In this document: piece after piece, positions 3,599 to 34,043 of the stretch
How positions within the stretch are numbered: position 1 is the first letter of the stretch
Layout: every line of letters starts with the position of its first letter
NCBI GenBank assembly: GCA_964598005.1
Contig: CAZRAL010000028.1
Span: 1-34,059, forward strand
Direction: 5' to 3'
DNA: 34,059 nt
Source of the DNA: an uncultured Burkholderiales bacterium
Lineage (GTDB): Bacteria > Pseudomonadota > Gammaproteobacteria > Burkholderiales > Usitatibacteraceae
The notes under the pieces: generated by a model
The model's database searches: none
What the model saw: only the letters and a program-made list of their open reading frames with translations
Told to the model about the DNA's origin: nothing
Translations under genes and position numbers: made by a program

Positions 3599-3976
3599 CT
3601 AGCGAAATGCCCACCGTTGTGAACTTATAAAATTAATGCTCAGCCCAGCAATGGAGCCTGCAGCCACCCCTAACCAAGGATACTGCTGTACTTCGCTGAA
3701 AGTGACAATGACGATTACAAAAACGGCATAATTTACCAGTGCCCCTAGGATCATCAAGGCAAGGTAACGTGACCATTCGTTGTATCCAGCAGGCTGCTTT
3801 ACATTGAAGGTATAGCGCCGATTCAGAAACCAGGTTGCACTGGCTGCCGCTATAAATGAAATAATGCGTCCCAGATATAAATTCAGTCCGGCTTTGGATA
3901 CCAGAATTTGCAGGCCCCCAGCATCGATGACAAAACCCAGCGTACCCACCAGGCAAAAACGCAATAGTTGGCTCAA
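3599..3976 (-). CDS. gtrA: GtrA-family small membrane protein (flippase-associated), about 125 aa from a TTG start overlapping the upstream stop
   Basis: LLRFCLVGTLGFVIDAGGLQILV ... FIAAASATWFLNRRYTF is the GtrA signature. 3-4 TM helices. Start inferred as TTG 3976 overlapping TGA 3975-3973 (TTGA coupling), because the track ORF N-terminus (MPEH...) is antisense shadow of the upstream gene. Confidence 0.6.
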   Translation of the reverse strand: MSQLLRFCLVGTLGFVIDAGGLQILVSKAGLNLYLGRIISFIAAASATWFLNRRYTFNVKQPAGYNEWSRYLALMILGALVNYAVFVIVIVTFSEVQQYPWLGVAAGSIAGLSINFISSQRWAFR

Positions 3977-4911
3977 AGCGAAGCCTGGGACGACTTGATT
4001 TGCAGATAAATCATGCGCTTCATTTCGTGTCGGCCGCGCGAGACGGTATCCAGAATCAATCCGCAGGCCAGGGATAAAAATGCCAGCAGCGTCATTCCGG
4101 TTACCAAAATTGCAGTCGGAAATCTCGGTACTAACCCGGTTTCGGCATAAGTCAAGAATAGCGGAACGGCCAGTATCAATGCAGCCAAACCAAGCAGCAT
4201 GCTCAGGCAACCGAAAAATGCCAGAGGGCGCTCCTGCTTGAACAGTTTCACAATGGTTATCAGGATGCGCATGCCATCACGATAGGTATTGAGCTTGCTC
4301 ACCGAGCCCTCCGGGCGGGATTGGTACGGGGTATCAATTTCATCGATGGGCATGCGCAATTCAAGGGCATGGACCGTCAATTCCGTTTCAATTTCGAAGC
4401 CGTTGGATAAAGCGGGAAACGATTTCACAAAGCGCCGCGAAAATACCCGATAGCCGGAAAGAATGTCGGTAAATGCCCGTCCGAATAACAATCCAACACA
4501 TCCCGTCAATACACGATTCCCTGCACGATGCCCTTTGCGGTAGGCGGCCTGTTCCTCGGTGACTCACTTCCCCACCACCATATCAAGATTTTCGTTAATG
4601 AGCCGGGCGACCATTTTTTCCGCGCTTGTGGCGTGGTAGGTATCATCGCCATCCACCAGCACATAGACATCGGCCTCGACATCTGCAAACATGCGGCGTA
4701 CGACATTGCCTTTGCCTTGCAACGTTACCCGGCGAACCTGTGCCCCTGCCTGCGTAGCGACTTCGATGGTTCGATCACGCGAATTGTTGTCAAAAACATA
4801 AATTTCCGCATGCGGCAATGCGGCGCGAAAATCGCGGACAACCGAACCAATAGCGATTTCTTCGTTGTAACAGGGAATTAATACCGCTACCCGAAATGTT
4901 GAACCAGTCAT
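3973..4911 (-). pseudogene. gtrB: GtrB/ArnC-like family-2 glycosyltransferase (polyprenyl-phosphate sugar transferase) interrupted by an in-frame TGA at 4566-4564
   Basis: Track ORFs 4564-5259 (N part: VAVLIPCYNEE, VFDNNSRDRT, VLVDGDD, DMVVGK*) and 3973-4509 (C part: SGYRVF motif plus 2 C-terminal TM helices) are in the same reading frame. They are separated only by a TGA, giving the read-through sequence ...DMVVGK*VTEEQAAYRKGHRAGNRVLTGCVGLLFG. The ATG at 4911 overlaps the upstream TGA (ATGA). Confidence 0.65.
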
Positions 4912-14968: not shown

Positions 14969-15682
14969 CTACGGTTTGCGTAGTATGCCAACAAGCAATA
15001 TGCGGAACGGTGCCAAAAAATGGAAGAAATTGACAGTACGTTCATAAATTATTCCAATGATATAAGTTAACCACATAAAACGAAGATACTCTGGGCGCCC
15101 TTCAATCAATTTAATTTTTTCAACTAGTAACCCGGCCGTAGTTGCATGACGTTTCACTGTCACCATCGTATTAGCTAAATATTGTGTTGGAAACGTATCT
15201 ATTTCTGCACGGCCACGTTTGCGATTAACCCATTGATGAAAACTGTAGGGTGTTATACGTGCAATTGTGGGCATGTAATGCCACTTGTTTGGAGTTTTAA
15301 ATATGAAGACGCCGCCAGGTTTTAAGACACGCTGAATTTCACAGAATACTGTTACAGGATCCGGGAGATGTTCTACGACATTATCTGCAAATACAACATC
15401 AAAATAAGCACTATCATAGGGGATGCTGTTAGCATTAGCTATACGACCTTCATCAAGCATAGGATTATTCAGTACTCGCGGGTCTAAATCAACCCCACAA
15501 ACACGTTTAACCAACCCCTTGAAATTCATTTGTTCGACAATGCCTGCTCCTGCACCTAAATCTAAAATCACACTATCGTCACATAAGTACTGAAGCAACG
15601 TATCCCTAAACAATTGATCATCCCAGTTTCGATCAAAATGCGGATACCATGCCTTATCAATTCGTGTAATCAAAGTGTTCAT
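14969..15682 (-). CDS. Class I SAM-dependent methyltransferase
   Basis: ILDLGAGAG (motif I), VFADNVVEHL, and LKPGGVFIF (motif III). Confidence 0.65.
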   Translation of the reverse strand: MNTLITRIDKAWYPHFDRNWDDQLFRDTLLQYLCDDSVILDLGAGAGIVEQMNFKGLVKRVCGVDLDPRVLNNPMLDEGRIANANSIPYDSAYFDVVFADNVVEHLPDPVTVFCEIQRVLKPGGVFIFKTPNKWHYMPTIARITPYSFHQWVNRKRGRAEIDTFPTQYLANTMVTVKRHATTAGLLVEKIKLIEGRPEYLRFMWLTYIIGIIYERTVNFFHFLAPFRILLVGILRKP

Positions 15683-17802
15683 TTTAAAGCTTCCTCAAGC
15701 TTTATAGAGACGCGACTGACTTCAATCAATTCACTTGGTTTGATGAGCAGTTCGTTACCTTTACGGATGGCATCCACAAACATCTGTACACAGGCTTGTA
15801 CACCTTTGTCTTGTCGCCAAAGATTCATCTTATTGAATTTTTTCCAGCCCCAGCCTTTTAGTTTTATAAAATTATCAAGCTGTAATACTCGTCCTGCACA
15901 AAAAACTTCCAGTCGTTCCTTGGGGAAACTTTGATGGCCATTAGCTAAATAATGAATGGCTCCCACGCTGCCATTTTCAAATTGCAATATTATTATTACT
16001 TTATCAGCAGTTATTTGCAGAGAAGGGTGACGTCCTAACATAACCGCGGAATAGTGCATAATTGGGGCACCAGCTAAATGACGTAAAAGATCGACAAAGT
16101 GACAAGCCTCCCCGATGATTCGGCCACCGCCAATAGCCTTATCTTGCGTCCAATGGATTGGAGGAATCGCTCCGGCGTTAACGGTGACTATGAAATTCTT
16201 AGGCTCAATTACGGTATCAAGCAACGCTTTCATTTTTATTACTTGGGGGGCAAAGCGGCGGTTAAAACCAACCATTAAATGCTGTTTTGGACATGTCGCC
16301 AGTATCGATTCAATTTTTCCAAGTTCTTGCATATTTAAGCAGAGCGGTTTTTCTACAAACACATGTTTACCCGCGCGCAGAGCTTGCAATACCAAATTGG
16401 CATGACTATCGTGCCTTGTGGCGATTACTACAGTATTTATCGCCTTATTAGTGAGCATCGCATTGAGGTCAGTTGACATTTGTATAAAATCAAACTTATC
16501 CCCATAGTGGAGCCCATTGATTCCCCCGGTTGTTACCACCGTATGCAATGTTGCGCCTGCTATTTTAAATGCCGGCATTAACATACGCCCTGCGTAATTG
16601 CCAGCACCAACAAAACCGGCACATACAGGTTCTGGTGTACCGGATAATGTATTGAGGACTACCGTACGCTGCATTAGCAGGTCAGTAAGTTGCTTTGCTG
16701 TATAAATTATTAGGATACCTAGCGACTGGGTTGGGCTACTTAATAATGAATATGCTTTTTCCGCATCGTCCAAATTGAAACGATGGGAGATTAGCGGTTC
16801 AACATCAATCGCACCAGTTGCCATTAGGTCCAGTACAGCTTCGAAATTACGCTGTTCAGTCCAACGCACAAATCCTATTGGGTAATCATGCCCGCCTTCT
16901 TCATAAGCAGGGTCGTATCGGCCAGGACCATATGAGCAGGAAACTTGAAAACTCAATTCCTTTTCATAAAAATCAGCGCGCGACAACTCAAGGCCCGTAA
17001 CACCAACCAATACAATGCGTCCTCGCTGCCGGCACATTTTGGCCGCCTGGCTTACGGGGTCATTGCTTTTGGTTGAAGCCGTAATAATGACTGCATCTAC
17101 CCCTCGCCCCCGCGAAAATGCGACTGCCATATCCAGGGGATTGGCCCCTTTTGAAACATCAACTATTTCGGCACCAAAACGTTGTGCGAGCGCCAAACGC
17201 GAAGCATCCAAATCAATTCCCAATACCCTGCAACCCTGTGCCTTGAGCATCTGTACGGTCAACAATCCAATTAGCCCCAAGCCTGTGACCACTACACATT
17301 CACCTAATGTGGGATTGACCAAACGAATGCCCTGCAAACCAATAGCGGCTAACACCGTGAAAGCAGCATGTTCGTCGGAAACGACGTCTGGAATACATGC
17401 ACACAGATTCTGAGGTACACAGACTATCTCGGCATGTTTACCGTTAGATACGACTCGATCACCAAGTGTAAAATCACTGACACCGCTGCCAATTTCAGCA
17501 ACAACACCGACATTGCAATAGCCCAATGCGAGTGGTTGGTCGAGTTTGCTCTGCACTGCTTCCAATGTGGTTAACAGCCCATCTGTACGAATCTTGTCGA
17601 GCACTTGGCGTACTTTGTCGGGTTGTTGTCGTGCTTTGTCCAATAAATTGGCTTTGCCAAATTCAACCAGCATTCGTTCAGTCCCTGCAGACACAAGCGT
17701 CCGAGATGTTTGGATTAGGAGTTGGCCAGGCTTTACATTCGGCACCGAAATTTCAGCCACTTCCGTGGTGCCGGTTTTGAGGCTTTGTAATATCTGTTTC
17801 AT
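15679..17802 (-). CDS. Bi-domain oxidoreductase: N-terminal zinc/MDR-type alcohol dehydrogenase fused to C-terminal Gfo/Idh/MocA NAD(P)-oxidoreductase
   Basis: N-terminal half has the GroES-like fold plus VVVTGLGLIGLL Rossmann motif. C-terminal half has GFVGAGNYAGRMLMPAF ... EKP ... GFNRRF of Gfo/Idh/MocA. ATG 17802 (MKQILQS) preferred. The track start at 17826 is a TTG lying inside the IS inverted repeat. Confidence 0.75.
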   Translation of the reverse strand: MKQILQSLKTGTTEVAEISVPNVKPGQLLIQTSRTLVSAGTERMLVEFGKANLLDKARQQPDKVRQVLDKIRTDGLLTTLEAVQSKLDQPLALGYCNVGVVAEIGSGVSDFTLGDRVVSNGKHAEIVCVPQNLCACIPDVVSDEHAAFTVLAAIGLQGIRLVNPTLGECVVVTGLGLIGLLTVQMLKAQGCRVLGIDLDASRLALAQRFGAEIVDVSKGANPLDMAVAFSRGRGVDAVIITASTKSNDPVSQAAKMCRQRGRIVLVGVTGLELSRADFYEKELSFQVSCSYGPGRYDPAYEEGGHDYPIGFVRWTEQRNFEAVLDLMATGAIDVEPLISHRFNLDDAEKAYSLLSSPTQSLGILIIYTAKQLTDLLMQRTVVLNTLSGTPEPVCAGFVGAGNYAGRMLMPAFKIAGATLHTVVTTGGINGLHYGDKFDFIQMSTDLNAMLTNKAINTVVIATRHDSHANLVLQALRAGKHVFVEKPLCLNMQELGKIESILATCPKQHLMVGFNRRFAPQVIKMKALLDTVIEPKNFIVTVNAGAIPPIHWTQDKAIGGGRIIGEACHFVDLLRHLAGAPIMHYSAVMLGRHPSLQITADKVIIILQFENGSVGAIHYLANGHQSFPKERLEVFCAGRVLQLDNFIKLKGWGWKKFNKMNLWRQDKGVQACVQMFVDAIRKGNELLIKPSELIEVSRVSIKLEEALK

Positions 17803-17809
17803 ATTAAAC

Positions 17810-18552
17810 AGGGTCTTAGGAAGCAAACATGTGATTGATACATGCTAACTTCTTGAGATGATTGAGAAAAACAGGTACCTCACACGTTCCAAAATCAGTG
17901 AGGCTAAGTTTCGACAGATTGTGCGCCATTTTTCTCTTGATTTGACCGCCAATGAATGCGCAGCATTGACGGGTATTTCCGTGCGTAGCATCAATTCGAT
18001 TTACCTGCGCATGCGTCAGCGTACGGTGACTTAGTGCACTGAGCATTCGCCTTTTTCTGGCGAGCGTGAAGCCGATGAGTCTTACTTTGGTGCTCGTCGT
18101 GTGCGTGGTAAACGGGGCCGTGGAGCGGCTGGCAAAACGATCGTCTTTGGTCTGCTCAAACGCGGCGATCATGTCTACACAGAGATCGTGCCTAATGCCT
18201 CCAAAGCCACGTTGCAAACCATTATTAGAGGTAAAGTTGACCCTCACATCCATACTGACAGCTGGCGTGGTTATGACGGGTGGGTCGATATTGGCTTTGA
18301 TAAGCATTTTCGGGTCAATCACGGCAACAATGAATTCGTCAAAGGCTCCAATCATGTCAACGGCATTGAGTCTTTCTGGAGTTTTGCCAAGCGCAGATTG
18401 GCCAAATTCAATGGTATTGCCAAACACACTTTTGCTTTGCATTTGAAAGAGTGTGAGTTCCGCTTCAACCATCGTCATGACAACCTCTATCTGGCCCTGC
18501 TAAGGTTATTTAGAAATAACCCTCTATAATCAAGTTTGCTTCCTAAGACCCT
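17810..18552 (+). mobile_element. IS1595-family (IS1016-group) insertion sequence, 743 bp, with perfect 19-bp terminal inverted repeats AGGGTCTTAGGAAGCAAAC
   Basis: 17810-17828 equals the reverse complement of 18534-18552. IRs extend imperfectly to about 27 bp. Flanked by AAAC on both sides (17806-17809 / 18553-18556). Encodes an IS1016-like transposase. Confidence 0.8.
17858..18529 (+). pseudogene. IS1016-like (IS1595 family) transposase interrupted by an in-frame TAG at 18032-18034
   Basis: N part 17858-18031 (MIEKNRYLTRSKISEAKFRQIVRHFSLDLTANECAALTGISVRSINSIYLRMRQRTVT*) and C part (..EHSPFSGEREADESYFGARRVRGKRGRGAAGKTIVFGLLKRG ... WRGYDG ... GIESFWSFAKRRLAKFNGI ... HLKECEFRFNHR) are in one frame (18032-17858 = 174 = 58x3). 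Matches IS1016 transposase from memory. Confidence 0.7.
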
Positions 18553-18559
18553 AAACGGT

Positions 18560-19327
18560 TTAGCTGGGCAGTAAAGCTTCTTTTCCTGCGCGGTTGGGGT
18601 AATTAATCAACACTGCACGATACTTACCCTTAAAAACAAAAAGGCTCCCAGCGGCAGCGCCAATAATACCGTAACGATTGATCAGTTCTTTTAAATCATC
18701 AAATGAACCTGCTCCGCCGAGCACAGTCAGTGGCAGATGAACCGCCTGCCGAACCAGCTCAACCAAGTCCAGGTCATAACCTTTCATCTTGCCATCCCGA
18801 TCCACCGAGTTGACCACTATCTCGCCTGCGCCTAACTCCGCCATTTGACGCGCGAATTCAACAGGATTAAGCCCTGTTCGGCGAGAACCATTGTGCGTTA
18901 CCACTTCGTAGCGACGAAGCAAACTCGTTTTCTTAATATCAATTACTACGACCACGCTCTGACTACCAACCCGCGAGGCAGCATCAGAAATGAGTTTCGG
19001 GTTCTCCACCGCCGCCGAACTGACGGCAACCTTTTCGACGCCAAGACTGATGATCTTCTCTATCTGCGCCACCGTACGTACGCCACCTCCATAACAAAGC
19101 GGCGCCCTGCATTCCGAGGCAAGGTGTGAAATCATCTGGTAGTCTGGTTCGGCACCCTTGACTGTAGCATCAATATCGACCACCACCAGTTCATCAACCT
19201 CTTTCTCATTGTAAATCCGAACCGCATTGATCGGATCCCCCACGTACTTCGGGTTGCCAAAATTAACGGTCTTGACGAGGCCGCTGTTGTGAACTAACAA
19301 ACAGGGTATCAGTCGGGGACGTAGCAT
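18560..19327 (-). CDS. wbuZ: HisF-like cyclase subunit (imidazole-glycerol-phosphate-synthase paralog; WbuZ-type)
   Basis: MLRPRLIPCLLV ... VDELVVVDIDA ... GGGVRT ... VSSAAVENP match the HisF (beta/alpha)8 signature. Start ATG 19327 overlaps the hisH-like stop. Confidence 0.75.
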   Translation of the reverse strand: MLRPRLIPCLLVHNSGLVKTVNFGNPKYVGDPINAVRIYNEKEVDELVVVDIDATVKGAEPDYQMISHLASECRAPLCYGGGVRTVAQIEKIISLGVEKVAVSSAAVENPKLISDAASRVGSQSVVVVIDIKKTSLLRRYEVVTHNGSRRTGLNPVEFARQMAELGAGEIVVNSVDRDGKMKGYDLDLVELVRQAVHLPLTVLGGAGSFDDLKELINRYGIIGAAAGSLFVFKGKYRAVLINYPNRAGKEALLPS

Positions 19328-30422: not shown

Positions 30423-31883
30423 TCATGATGTTGGTACATTCTCAACGCGCATATTCAACATACGTGCGCGGATCGCCTGATAACTGCGCCCATAGAGATA
30501 GACCAAAAGAAAATGCAAGGGCCATCCGCCGGACAATAAAACCCGAAAAAAGGATGTATCTGCAAGCATCCAGATGCAGCCAAGTGAAGATAAACACAGT
30601 AGGCGAAGATTAGTTTTTCTCGACCAGCTATTGAATATTGCCAAAGCGATTCCAAGAATCACCCCGATTAGTACGACACCGAAATAACCGGCCGCTGCTA
30701 TTCCATCAGTCGACCAAAATCCACCGGACATATCATATGTATAAAAACCTGCCTGAAAGTGTCCAACAATCTGTCCAATACTAAATTTTTCGTATGGGTA
30801 ATCTATAAACCAGCTGACAGGCCCAAGGTGGGAATAAAATGTGAATGGGTTTTGGTTGTTAACAAAAAAGTCATAGTAATTACCAAGGGTCATCCCGTTT
30901 ATTGAGAAGGCTCTCTTGACTACCTGAGAGAGAACAAGACCGACCAATTCCTCTACTTCTTGACCATAAATTTCTATAAGAAGCAACACGGCTATTATTA
31001 TTATGGCAAAAAGTTTCCCGATATCTTCGGCTAAGATCTTTTCCTTCTTTAGAACAAAATAATGCACTGCATACATGAGCGGAATCAGAAAAACAATAAA
31101 CTTCGATCCGGTAATAAAGAAGCCCATAAGAAACCCCAAAAATCCAAAGTAAAGAATGTGTCTTTGTTTATACATCATGCCGATCGCAACCATTAATGGC
31201 GATATCACCCGAATCAACCATTGGAGTATATAAGCTGGAAGCGTCCTATTTGGGGAGTATTCCGATACGATATCTCTTTGGTCGTAGACATTTGTGATTT
31301 CCACAATCGTAATCACACTCGCGTAAAATATAAAAAGAAAGGCTGATATAAAAAGAAAAATCAAAATTAAATTGATCTCAAATTTTGAGTTCAAGTATCT
31401 TATGCCGGAAGTGAGTCTGTTGTTCAGTGCTAAGATTAGTTCATGACGATATGTCACATGCTTCCATTTTGCGTTCGCTAGACTTTCTGGAATGAATGCA
31501 ATGAGGTAAAGCGAGACGGTCAGGCAGGCTATCAGAAAATACCCGGCATCTGAGGGGAAACCCTGCATTGCGACGATTATTACCGAAGGAACAAAGACGA
31601 AAAAGAAAAGAAACCAAACCACAAATCGCGAATAAAATACTATCGCTCGTGGGTAGGTCGCCGAAAACATGATGCAGCATAGGCTTGCCAAAATCAGGGG
31701 CCCTAAGCTTCGATCGCTATTGAATTCTGGAAACCCTTGATAGCCCCATACCGGAGTCAAGTAATAGTAGTAATTGTAAATATTAACCAGAATATAAATC
31801 AGCGTGATTGCAACCAGCAGCAATCTGCCTTTTTGAATTACGAGGTTCCCCCGGTTTTTCGTCTGCAAAAAAGCGAGATTCAT
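30423..31883 (-). CDS. wzy: Wzy-like O-antigen/EPS polymerase (polytopic membrane protein). The 5' 14 codons are supplied by the adjacent IS3 inverted repeat.
   Basis: Very AT-rich and hydrophobic. At least 10 TM helices with a large loop. Poorly conserved, as expected for Wzy. The ORF start (MNLAFLQTKNRGNL) lies inside IS sequence 31842-31883. Confidence 0.4.
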   Translation of the reverse strand: MNLAFLQTKNRGNLVIQKGRLLLVAITLIYILVNIYNYYYYLTPVWGYQGFPEFNSDRSLGPLILASLCCIMFSATYPRAIVFYSRFVVWFLFFFVFVPSVIIVAMQGFPSDAGYFLIACLTVSLYLIAFIPESLANAKWKHVTYRHELILALNNRLTSGIRYLNSKFEINLILIFLFISAFLFIFYASVITIVEITNVYDQRDIVSEYSPNRTLPAYILQWLIRVISPLMVAIGMMYKQRHILYFGFLGFLMGFFITGSKFIVFLIPLMYAVHYFVLKKEKILAEDIGKLFAIIIIAVLLLIEIYGQEVEELVGLVLSQVVKRAFSINGMTLGNYYDFFVNNQNPFTFYSHLGPVSWFIDYPYEKFSIGQIVGHFQAGFYTYDMSGGFWSTDGIAAAGYFGVVLIGVILGIALAIFNSWSRKTNLRLLCLSSLGCIWMLADTSFFRVLLSGGWPLHFLLVYLYGRSYQAIRARMLNMRVENVPTS

Positions 31884-32779
31884 GCGACCTGTTTTTCCTG
31901 AGACTGCACTGGCGACTTGTAACCGAGGCTCGAATGCCGCTTCTTGCGGTTGTAAAAAACCTCAATATACTCGAAGCTGGCGGCCTTTATGTCGGCATGA
32001 GTGGCATAGCGAATTCCATGTATCCACTCGTTCTTCAAGCTATTAAACCAGCTCTCCGTCGGCGCATTATCCCAACAGTTGCCTTTCCGACTCATCGAGC
32101 AAGTCATGCCATAGGCCTTGAGCTTATCCTGAAAGGCATGAATGGCGTACTGGCTACCCCGGTCAGAATGGTGCATCAGCCCCGCTATCGGCCGTTTCCT
32201 GAACCAGGCTATAGTTAGCGTATCGATCACGAGGTCCGCTGTCATGTGCGGTTTCAGCGACCAGCCGACTATTTCGCAGTTGAACAGGTCAAGCACGATA
32301 GCCAGATACAGCCAGCCTTCATCGGTCCACAGGTAGGTTATGTCCGATTCCCAGACCTGATTCGGCACCGACGGCGTGAAGTTCCTGTCCAGCAGGTTCT
32401 CCGCCACCGGCAGGCCATATTTCGAGTCCGTCGTCATTTGGTAGCGCCGCTTGTGGCAGGCACGAATGCTGTTGTCGCGCATCAATCGCTCAACCCGTTC
32501 CTTTGCCGGTCGGATATACCCGGCCACGCAGCTCGCACACCATACGCGGGCTGTCGTAAGCGCCTTTGACTTCGCTATGAATGGATTCGATCAGCGCCAG
32601 CATTTGCTGGTCAGAGAGTCGCTTGCGATTAGGTGTGCCACCACGCATCCATGTACGATAACCACTGATGCTGACATTGAGCACGTCACACATTTCAGCT
32701 AGCGAGTATGATTGGCTTTGCTCGGCAATCTAGGCGTACCTCACAGTACACCTCTTGCAAAGTACGCCGTCGCTTTTTT
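31880..32779 (-). pseudogene. IS3-family transposase OrfB, frame-disrupted beyond the programmed -1 site
   Basis: Three frames are needed: -1 frame from the slippery site stops after 11 codons (ATAYFARGVL*); N-terminal OrfB segment IAEQSQSYSLAEMCDVLNVSISGY ... ELRGR lies in the +1 frame (32729-32490); DDE core (RVERLMR ... VWESDITY ... HSDRGSQY ... NAPTESWF) lies in the -1 frame (32527-31880). Confidence 0.65.
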
Positions 32780-33030
32780 AGGATTTCATTCCCCCGCTTC
32801 AACCGCAGATTTTCACCGCGCAGCCTTGAAAGCATCATTTCATCCGGGGTCACGATTGGGCCACCAGGCCCGCTGAGTCTGCCTTTCGCCGCCGCCTTGA
32901 TCCAGTTGTGCAAAGTCTGGTCGCTCAGCCCCACTTCTTTGCATACCCTGCTGACGTTTTGTCCATCATGGATCCGCTTGCCCGCCAGTTCCTTGAATTC
33001 AATTGTGTATGATTGCCTCGGTATTTTCAT
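32695..33030 (-). CDS. IS3-family transposase OrfA (HTH)
   Basis: QSYTIEFKELAGKRIHDGQNVSRVCKEVGLSDQTLHNWIK HTH. Slippery heptamer A AAA AAG at 32779-32773 near the 3' end. The -1 frame after it reads ATAYFAR, the conserved OrfAB junction. Confidence 0.8.
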   Translation of the reverse strand: MKIPRQSYTIEFKELAGKRIHDGQNVSRVCKEVGLSDQTLHNWIKAAAKGRLSGPGGPIVTPDEMMLSRLRGENLRLKRGNEILKKRRRTLQEVYCEVRLDCRAKPIILAS

Positions 33031-33361: not shown

Positions 33362-33431
33362 CATCAAAATGTGAAGTTGAAGTCACCCCCATTTCACGGA
33401 CACCTTATTGTTCTTTCAGAAGGAGTCCGAA

Positions 33432-34043
33432 ATGTCCAAACCGTACATCCGCAAACCGCCCTATCCGGCGCAATTTCGAGAACAGATGATTGAGCTGGTT
33501 CGCGCGGGGTGCAAGCCCGGCGAATTGACCAAGGAGTATGGCTGCCATGTCACCAGTATCCTGAACTGGATAGGCCAGGCCGATGGAGCGACCGGTGTCG
33601 TGCCAACCCAGGCCAGTGCGCTCAGTGCCAGTGAACGCCAGGAGCTCATCGAGCTGCGTCCCCAGTTGCGCCAAGTCCAGATGGAACAAGATATCCTTGC
33701 AAAGGCTACGGCCTGGTTTGCCAACAACGGCGACAACACGTTCACCCCCGTCTACGCGGAGCTGCAAGACGCAGGCATGGTGGCCAGCCGCAAGCGCATT
33801 GCCCGTTTGATGCGACACGAGCAGATGCGTGGAGTCAGTCGCAGGCGCAGCTTCTGCGTGACTGAGCGAGATGTCCGGCATCGCCCGGCACCGGACTTGG
33901 TGAATCGTGAGTTTGTGGCCACCGACATCAACCAGTTGTGGGTGGCCGACATGACCTACATCCCGACCTGGACGGGATTGCTGTACCCGGCCATGGTTAT
34001 TGATCCGAGATTTTCCATTAGGCTGGTCCCATTGCAGAGCTAA
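33432..34043 (+). CDS. IS3-family transposase with OrfA and OrfB fused in one frame (internal deletion derivative). C-terminus anomalous or partial.
   Basis: AGGAG RBS 7 nt before ATG 33432. OrfA HTH (MSKPYIRKPPYPAQFREQMIELVRAGCKPGELTKEYG), ATAWFA junction motif, then directly KRIARLMR ... DINQLWVADMTYIP (first catalytic Asp). The OrfB N-terminal segment of about 50 aa expected between them is absent. Ends ...VIDPRFSIRLVPLQS* at 34043, deviating from the conserved VIDLFSRxVVGW. Confidence 0.55.
   Translation: MSKPYIRKPPYPAQFREQMIELVRAGCKPGELTKEYGCHVTSILNWIGQADGATGVVPTQASALSASERQELIELRPQLRQVQMEQDILAKATAWFANNGDNTFTPVYAELQDAGMVASRKRIARLMRHEQMRGVSRRRSFCVTERDVRHRPAPDLVNREFVATDINQLWVADMTYIPTWTGLLYPAMVIDPRFSIRLVPLQS

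Follow-up and report, generated by a model that had tools for sequence, protein, structure and literature searches.

What occupies the junction between wbuZ and the following oxidoreductase gene in contig CAZRAL010000028.1 of an uncultured Burkholderiales bacterium, and what would it do to the operon that it interrupts? The window analyzed is the whole contig of 34,059 bp, and all positions given are window positions. We found that the junction holds an insertion sequence (IS) of the IS1016 group, IS1595 family. Very likely, this is a single copy that transposed into the wbuZ-oxidoreductase spacer in antisense orientation to the operon, and its transposase is dead or crippled. The element is a typical, unnamed member of its group; it amounts to genome damage of a sort that is routine in bacteria and does not constitute a new system. 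Its parts are the following.

17811-18551, plus strand (the transposase strand, antisense to the operon): complete IS1016-group (IS1595-family) insertion sequence, 741 bp, with GGG...CCC termini as in seven full-length relatives
17811-17828, plus strand: left terminal inverted repeat, GGGTCTTAGGAAGCAAAC, from repeat comparison and motif search
18534-18551, minus strand: right terminal inverted repeat, perfect complement of the left repeat, from repeat comparison and motif search
17858-18529, plus strand: transposase pseudogene of 223 codons (225 in relatives) with the motifs DESYFG (D73), HTD (D134), and NGIESFWSFAK (E171, K178), from the open reading frame (ORF), Pfam and NCBIfam matches, and the signature in PMC12561309
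18032-18034, plus strand: in-frame amber TAG at codon 59, where the closest relatives have W59 (TGG), from alignment; identical in Logan contig L205
18245-18250, plus strand: site of a 6-bp in-frame deletion (TGTGTC of the relative L003 is missing between 18247 and 18248), from alignment with L003

The boundaries were set by the inverted repeats and by comparison with the relatives. Between 17810-17831 and 18531-18552, 22 nucleotides (nt) pair with 95% complementarity, the first 19 of them perfectly. The 18-mer GGGTCTTAGGAAGCAAAC was detected in the window only at 17811-17828 (plus strand) and 18534-18551 (minus strand), the chance expectation being 0.02 matches. All seven full-length relatives, which are 738 to 747 bp long, start with GGG and end with CCC. 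Therefore, the element proper is 17811-18551, and the additional A/T pair belongs to the flanking DNA. An earlier note on this DNA had described a 743-bp element with perfect 19-bp repeats; the 19 perfectly paired nucleotides were indeed found, but the outermost pair is flank, which leaves 741 bp and 18-bp repeats. With the family boundaries, the element is separated by 8 bp from the wbuZ stop and by 8 bp from the oxidoreductase ATG. The previously given gaps of 7 bp and 8 bp hold in part under either set of boundaries, since they become 8 and 8 bp by the former and 7 and 7 bp by those of the note. Size and ends also fit the IS1016 group, for which about 700-745 bp and GGG termini are usual.

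The family assignment is based on the transposase, analyzed with its stop masked. It matched Pfam PF12762 (DDE_Tnp_IS1595) over residues 67-204 with 87 bits (cut-off, 27), and NCBIfam NF033547 (IS1595 family transposase) over model positions 1-215, the whole model, with 162 bits (cut-off, 75). As is characteristic of the IS1595 family, a single sense ORF lies between two perfect terminal repeats. PF12762 was the sole domain reported in the Pfam scan of the transposase, in which the N-terminal zinc finger Zn_Tnp_IS1595 gave no match; elements of the IS1016 group are described as being without this zinc finger (PMC8101967). Furthermore, the IS1016 catalytic signature, E-DESYFG(53)VYTD----Y(24)HINGIENFWSQAK(14)LFIKECEFRFN (PMC12561309), has its counterpart in the window protein, which contains, in signature order, EADESYFG, IHTDSWRGY, HVNGIESFWSFAK, and LHLKECEFRFN, with spacings of 52, 26, and 15. 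The motifs DESYFG and (I/V)xTD are separated by 52 residues in the window, as against 53 in ISApl4 and 54 in close relatives. These results bear out the placement in the IS1016 group and IS1595 family that the earlier note had proposed.

The transposase gene is damaged at several positions. The amber codon corresponds to a single G-to-A change at 18033 relative to the TGG of L003. The 6-bp deletion, through which two residues are lost, lies one residue upstream of the HTD motif with the second catalytic Asp. In addition, the changes L70R and L142W affect columns that are at least 95% conserved among 120 relatives. The window transposase departs from such columns five times, the relatives a median of one time, and 119 of the 120 homologues (best 120 of 8000) are 225 to 228 amino acids (aa) long. 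The TAG at 18032-18034 had been recognized before; the deletion, L70R, and L142W had been missed, so that the damage was understated, and the antisense orientation had gone unstated. In comparison to L003, we counted 10, 9, and 37 differences at the first, second, and third codon positions of the sense frame, with a ratio of nonsynonymous to synonymous substitution rates (dN/dS) of 0.115 at a dS of 0.30. It follows from this ratio and the third-position bias that selection acted on the lineage during most of its past, the disabling lesions being comparatively recent. Given the amber codon, the deletion, L70R, and L142W, the copy would be able to move only if an intact relative supplied transposase in trans. 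We conclude that it is very probably non-autonomous.

Among the matches listed, L002 and L003 come closest, with 91% identity along the full element length. A scan of genome contigs located GGGTCTTAGGAAGCAAAC in other genomes in at least 119 stretches. Most of these matches are at the ends of contigs, as is usual for repeats present in multiple copies. The hosts include Ventosimonas gracilis, Polaromonas, Ottowia, Dyella, Geothrix, and several uncultured Beta- and Deltaproteobacteria. Three full copies (L065, L035, and L064) are flanked by the clean A/T-rich duplications TTAACAA, ATATTCAA, and TTTCTTT (7, 8, and 7 bp, respectively). A partial match only was seen for L074, and no duplication for L003 and L114. 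Judging from the same repeat at many unrelated sites and from the clean duplications, the element family is clearly mobile.

The repeat is itself conserved, being shared by elements that are just 66-75% identical overall (L004-L122). It reaches very distant phyla (Proteobacteria, Acidobacteriota with Geothrix, and Bacteroidota metagenome-assembled genomes), and in Ventosimonas gracilis CV58 at least 20 contig-end copies were detected.

A surface-polysaccharide gene cluster, encoded on the minus strand, occupies the center of the contig. The genes for a GT4 glycosyltransferase, wbuX, hisH, and wbuZ are located upstream of the element, the wbuZ start at 19327 overlapping the hisH stop (ATGA). 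Downstream there are eight genes, in agreement with the list from oxidoreductase through wecA given earlier: bi-domain oxidoreductase, methyltransferase, heparinase II/III-like, WcaI-like glycosyltransferase, wecB, epimerase/dehydratase, TviB-like dehydrogenase, and wecA. The genes at the junction are the following.

18560-19327, minus strand: wbuZ (HisF-like acetamidino-sugar gene), last before the insertion, stop TAA at 18560-18562 (NCBIfam AglZ_HisF2, 382 bits; WbuZ, 301 bits; exact product on record)
15679-17802, minus strand: bi-domain oxidoreductase gene, first after the insertion, intact, 707 aa, ATG at 17800-17802 (gene analysis; directly after wbuZ in about 30 related loci)

For the empty site, metagenome contigs were scanned with WbuZ, which returned 80 loci. 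An oxidoreductase homologue is located downstream of wbuZ in 40 of them, and in about 30 it follows directly, mostly 10-26 nt past the stop. In the closest loci, L125 and L126 (WbuZ 91-93% identical), the spacer is TAA-GTGAATTTTGAA-ATG, 12 nt long. The earlier estimate of about 11 bp between the two genes if the IS were absent is thus supported, and the comparison with related genomes that had been proposed as a check gave empty junctions, showing that a tight junction of two genes was the site of insertion. P0122 and P0126, the oxidoreductase homologues closest to that of the window (75-76% identity), were also considered for the empty site and rejected, as they lie in different gene contexts. 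The sequences bordering the element are as follows.

17805-17810, no strand: left flank TAAACA, possible decayed target-site duplication (same as the right flank at 5/6 positions)
18552-18557, no strand: right flank TAAACG, partner in the possible duplication, from flank comparison

These flanks are among the observations that weigh against a simple transposition of a mobile element. For IS1016 elements, a target duplication of 7-9 bp was reported (PMC12561309), and TAAACA/TAAACG, with 5/6 identical positions, is shorter and less clean than usual. It is possible to read the two hexamers as a decayed target-site duplication, and this is the weakest part of the case. Moreover, no second copy of the exact element, that is, none more than 91% identical, was present among the genome-scan matches listed, and the matches in the plasmid collection reached at most 72%. 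In exact look-ups, neither the 58-aa nor the 142-aa fragment of the transposase was on record.

An imperfect target duplication would also be expected if the element marked the junction of two polysaccharide modules joined by recombination between IS copies. WbuZ shows 85-92% protein identity to L125-L129 and the oxidoreductase about 69%, whereas the two proteins are conserved to the same degree among L125-L129 themselves, a step that looked like such a junction. However, the identity does not drop at the element: wbuZ is 81-83% identical at the nucleotide level to the L125/L126/L129-like lineage, and this level continues into the oxidoreductase gene, with 79-83% identity to L125, L126, and L129 over its first 150 nt and 61-67% thereafter, while L123 and L124 show the opposite trend, with 63-65% and then 69-73%. 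An IS-mediated recombination junction was therefore rejected, the breakpoint lying about 150 nt within the oxidoreductase gene and not at the element. Since both flanks of the element come from one lineage, simple transposition is favored and we regard the joining of modules at the IS as very unlikely. An alternative of another kind concerns the amber codon, which might not be real (a sequencing error) or might not stop translation (read-through by a suppressor tRNA or under code reassignment), in which case the transposase would be full length. Four tRNA or tRNA-like genes are indeed present in the same contig at 1625-2087, but their anticodons are His-GTG, Lys-CTT-like, Ile-AAT, and Gly-CCC, with no CTA among them, and 5 of the 19 cluster genes use TAG as their normal stop; on these grounds, amber suppression was rejected. 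Importantly, the window element was recovered at one and the same locus in two Logan runs. Contig L205 (run SRR12762282, 1310 bp) is 100% identical to window 17552-18861 and spans both junctions, the TAG, and the deletion; contig L001 (run SRR12762283) is 100% identical over 22104-18447 and ends within the element. The reservation of the earlier note that the TAG could be a sequencing error is thereby answered: with an independent run agreeing base for base, a one-off error of assembly does not account for it. The TAG is unlikely to be an artefact of sequencing or to be suppressed, and because the deletion, L70R, and L142W would remain even with read-through, we consider a functional full-length transposase extremely improbable.

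The mosaic breakpoint, near 17650 and about 150 nt inside the oxidoreductase gene, is an observation in its own right. The first 150 nt of this gene match the lineage of the upstream wbuX-hisH-wbuZ module, and the remainder is nearer to the L123/L124 lineage.

Instead of being a mere insertion, the element could have been co-opted and serve the downstream genes, either through a promoter directed outward or through an antisense gene with a function of its own. Relevant to this is a long open frame on the operon strand.

17816-18478, minus strand: open frame of 220 codons that runs codirectionally with the operon and antisense to the transposase, judged a by-product and not a gene (ORF listing, relatives, shuffles, and substitution pattern)

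This frame is exactly codon-aligned with the transposase. It has a GAGG 5 nt before its ATG (18478), which is 81 nt past the wbuZ stop, and its stop, a TAA, falls within the inverted repeat, 13 nt ahead of the oxidoreductase ATG. It is open in L003, L114, and L065, and synonymous-codon shuffles reached the observed open length in just 0.15% (window and L003) or 2.8% (L114) of cases. In the public annotation, it is this 220-aa antisense ORF that is called as the gene of the IS region. Against co-option, the frame is closed in L074, L035, and L064, the ORF has no Pfam family on record, and the substitutions follow the sense frame: the differences from L003 are distributed 10/9/37 on the sense codon positions, and the antisense protein is 80% identical, compared with 92% for the sense protein. 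Further, a consensus scan revealed no promoter-like site on the operon strand. The substitution pattern and the loss of the frame in three relatives led us to reject the 220-aa ORF as a real gene. The public gene call is almost certainly wrong, and co-option of the element, by promoter or by antisense gene, is highly improbable.

Transposition of a single, now defective copy into the spacer is thus retained, and its expected effect on the operon can be outlined. The element would have entered the 10-12 nt spacer between wbuZ and the oxidoreductase gene of the minus-strand operon in antisense orientation. The 741-bp insert would remove the tight wbuZ-oxidoreductase coupling and would add to the operon transcript mostly untranslated RNA with C-rich stretches. 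On the operon strand, the RNA of the element has C-over-G stretches at 18051-18167 and 18246-18349, with C/G values of up to 1.9 (90th percentile of the operon, 1.39). Rho-dependent polarity would then lower, but not abolish, the expression of the oxidoreductase gene and some of the following genes. If this RNA is untranslated, polarity on the eight downstream genes, which the earlier note had expected, is plausible and a reasonable proposal; it would probably reduce the expression of the oxidoreductase gene and of some genes after it. That expression would be lowered and not abolished follows from the intact state of the eight downstream genes, none of which has internal stops, and from the lack of a predicted intrinsic terminator in the insert: the consensus scan detected neither promoter-like nor terminator-like sites on the operon strand inside the element, region matches being no commoner than in shuffled sequence. 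The intactness of these genes can mean either that the insertion is recent or that the genes are still expressed and under selection. Several points weigh against an effect by polarity. The promoter scan is crude, and a weak outward or hybrid promoter could escape it; internal promoters might be situated farther along the operon, where there are gaps of 100-170 nt; and the lowered expression is purely what we infer.

Conversely, the insertion could be nearly silent, if ribosomes on the antisense frame shielded the C-rich stretches from Rho and restored termination-reinitiation coupling to the oxidoreductase gene. The 13-nt distance from the stop of this frame to the oxidoreductase start is close to the native 10-12 nt. 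Such shielding would explain why eight intact genes lie behind the insertion, and, if general, it would predict a biased orientation of IS1016-type insertions in operons. We consider it improbable.

IS insertions in O-antigen and capsule clusters are known, an example being IS5 in wbbL (rfb-50) of E. coli K-12. There, too, an IS interrupts a surface-polysaccharide operon, and polymer loss or change is expected. In contrast to IS5 in wbbL, the window insertion is intergenic and destroys no coding sequence, and any effect would be exerted via polarity or lost translational coupling. Biologically, the case is a local one: the acetamidino-sugar surface polysaccharide of the strain may be produced in smaller amounts or in an altered form.

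Among described elements, IS1016 (Haemophilus, Neisseria) and ISApl4 (Actinobacillus pleuropneumoniae) (PMC12561309) share with the window element one transposase gene for about 217-225 aa without the N-terminal zinc finger, the DESYFG / TD----Y / NGIE.FWS.AK / KECEFRFN signature, a total length of about 710-750 bp, and short terminal inverted repeats; likewise, relatives of the window element give A/T-rich 7-8 bp duplications. The window element differs from them in its inverted-repeat sequence and spacings, and this copy also in its inactivated transposase and possibly decayed target duplication; its nearest listed match, in metagenome contigs, is just 91% identical. Single IS1016 copies with premature stops were reported in Moraxella ovis and M. 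bovoculi, where they were read as old acquisitions inactivated later (PMC12561309). Those are, like ours, lone IS1016-type elements with a transposase gene cut short by an early stop, but they belong to other hosts and differ in sequence, and the window copy sits inside an operon. IS1016 copies with premature stops are thus already known (PMC12561309), and insertion sequences in polysaccharide operons are commonplace. The element makes no open question testable. It matters mainly for annotation, the proper label being IS1595-family (IS1016-group) element with a transposase pseudogene.

The rest of the contig shows an ordinary insertion-sequence load and gene decay, which fits the earlier suggestion of ongoing pseudogenization. 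One in-frame TGA, noticed previously and located here at 4564-4566 (VVGK*VTEEQ), interrupts the gene at 3973-4911 (minus strand) for a family-2 glycosyltransferase of the GtrB/AglJ-like type. With the stop masked, the 312-aa product of this gene is a full-length match to TIGR04182, and a GtrA-domain ORF follows. At the head of the cluster, IS3-family elements are located at 31880-33030 (minus strand) and 33408-34043 (plus strand). The former is probably defective too, since its orfB is broken into two parts, of 67 aa and 215 aa, that do not share a frame; this frame-broken copy and the TGA of the gtrB-like gene are the decay meant above. The latter IS3 copy runs into the contig end. Finally, the four tRNA or tRNA-like genes at 1625-2087 are on the plus strand in two adjacent pairs. 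The Lys-CTT-like gene was detected by Rfam only, and the anticodon of the Ile gene, AAT (loop CUAAUCC), is unusual. On the opposite strand, these genes are overlapped by a spurious ORF of 165 aa.

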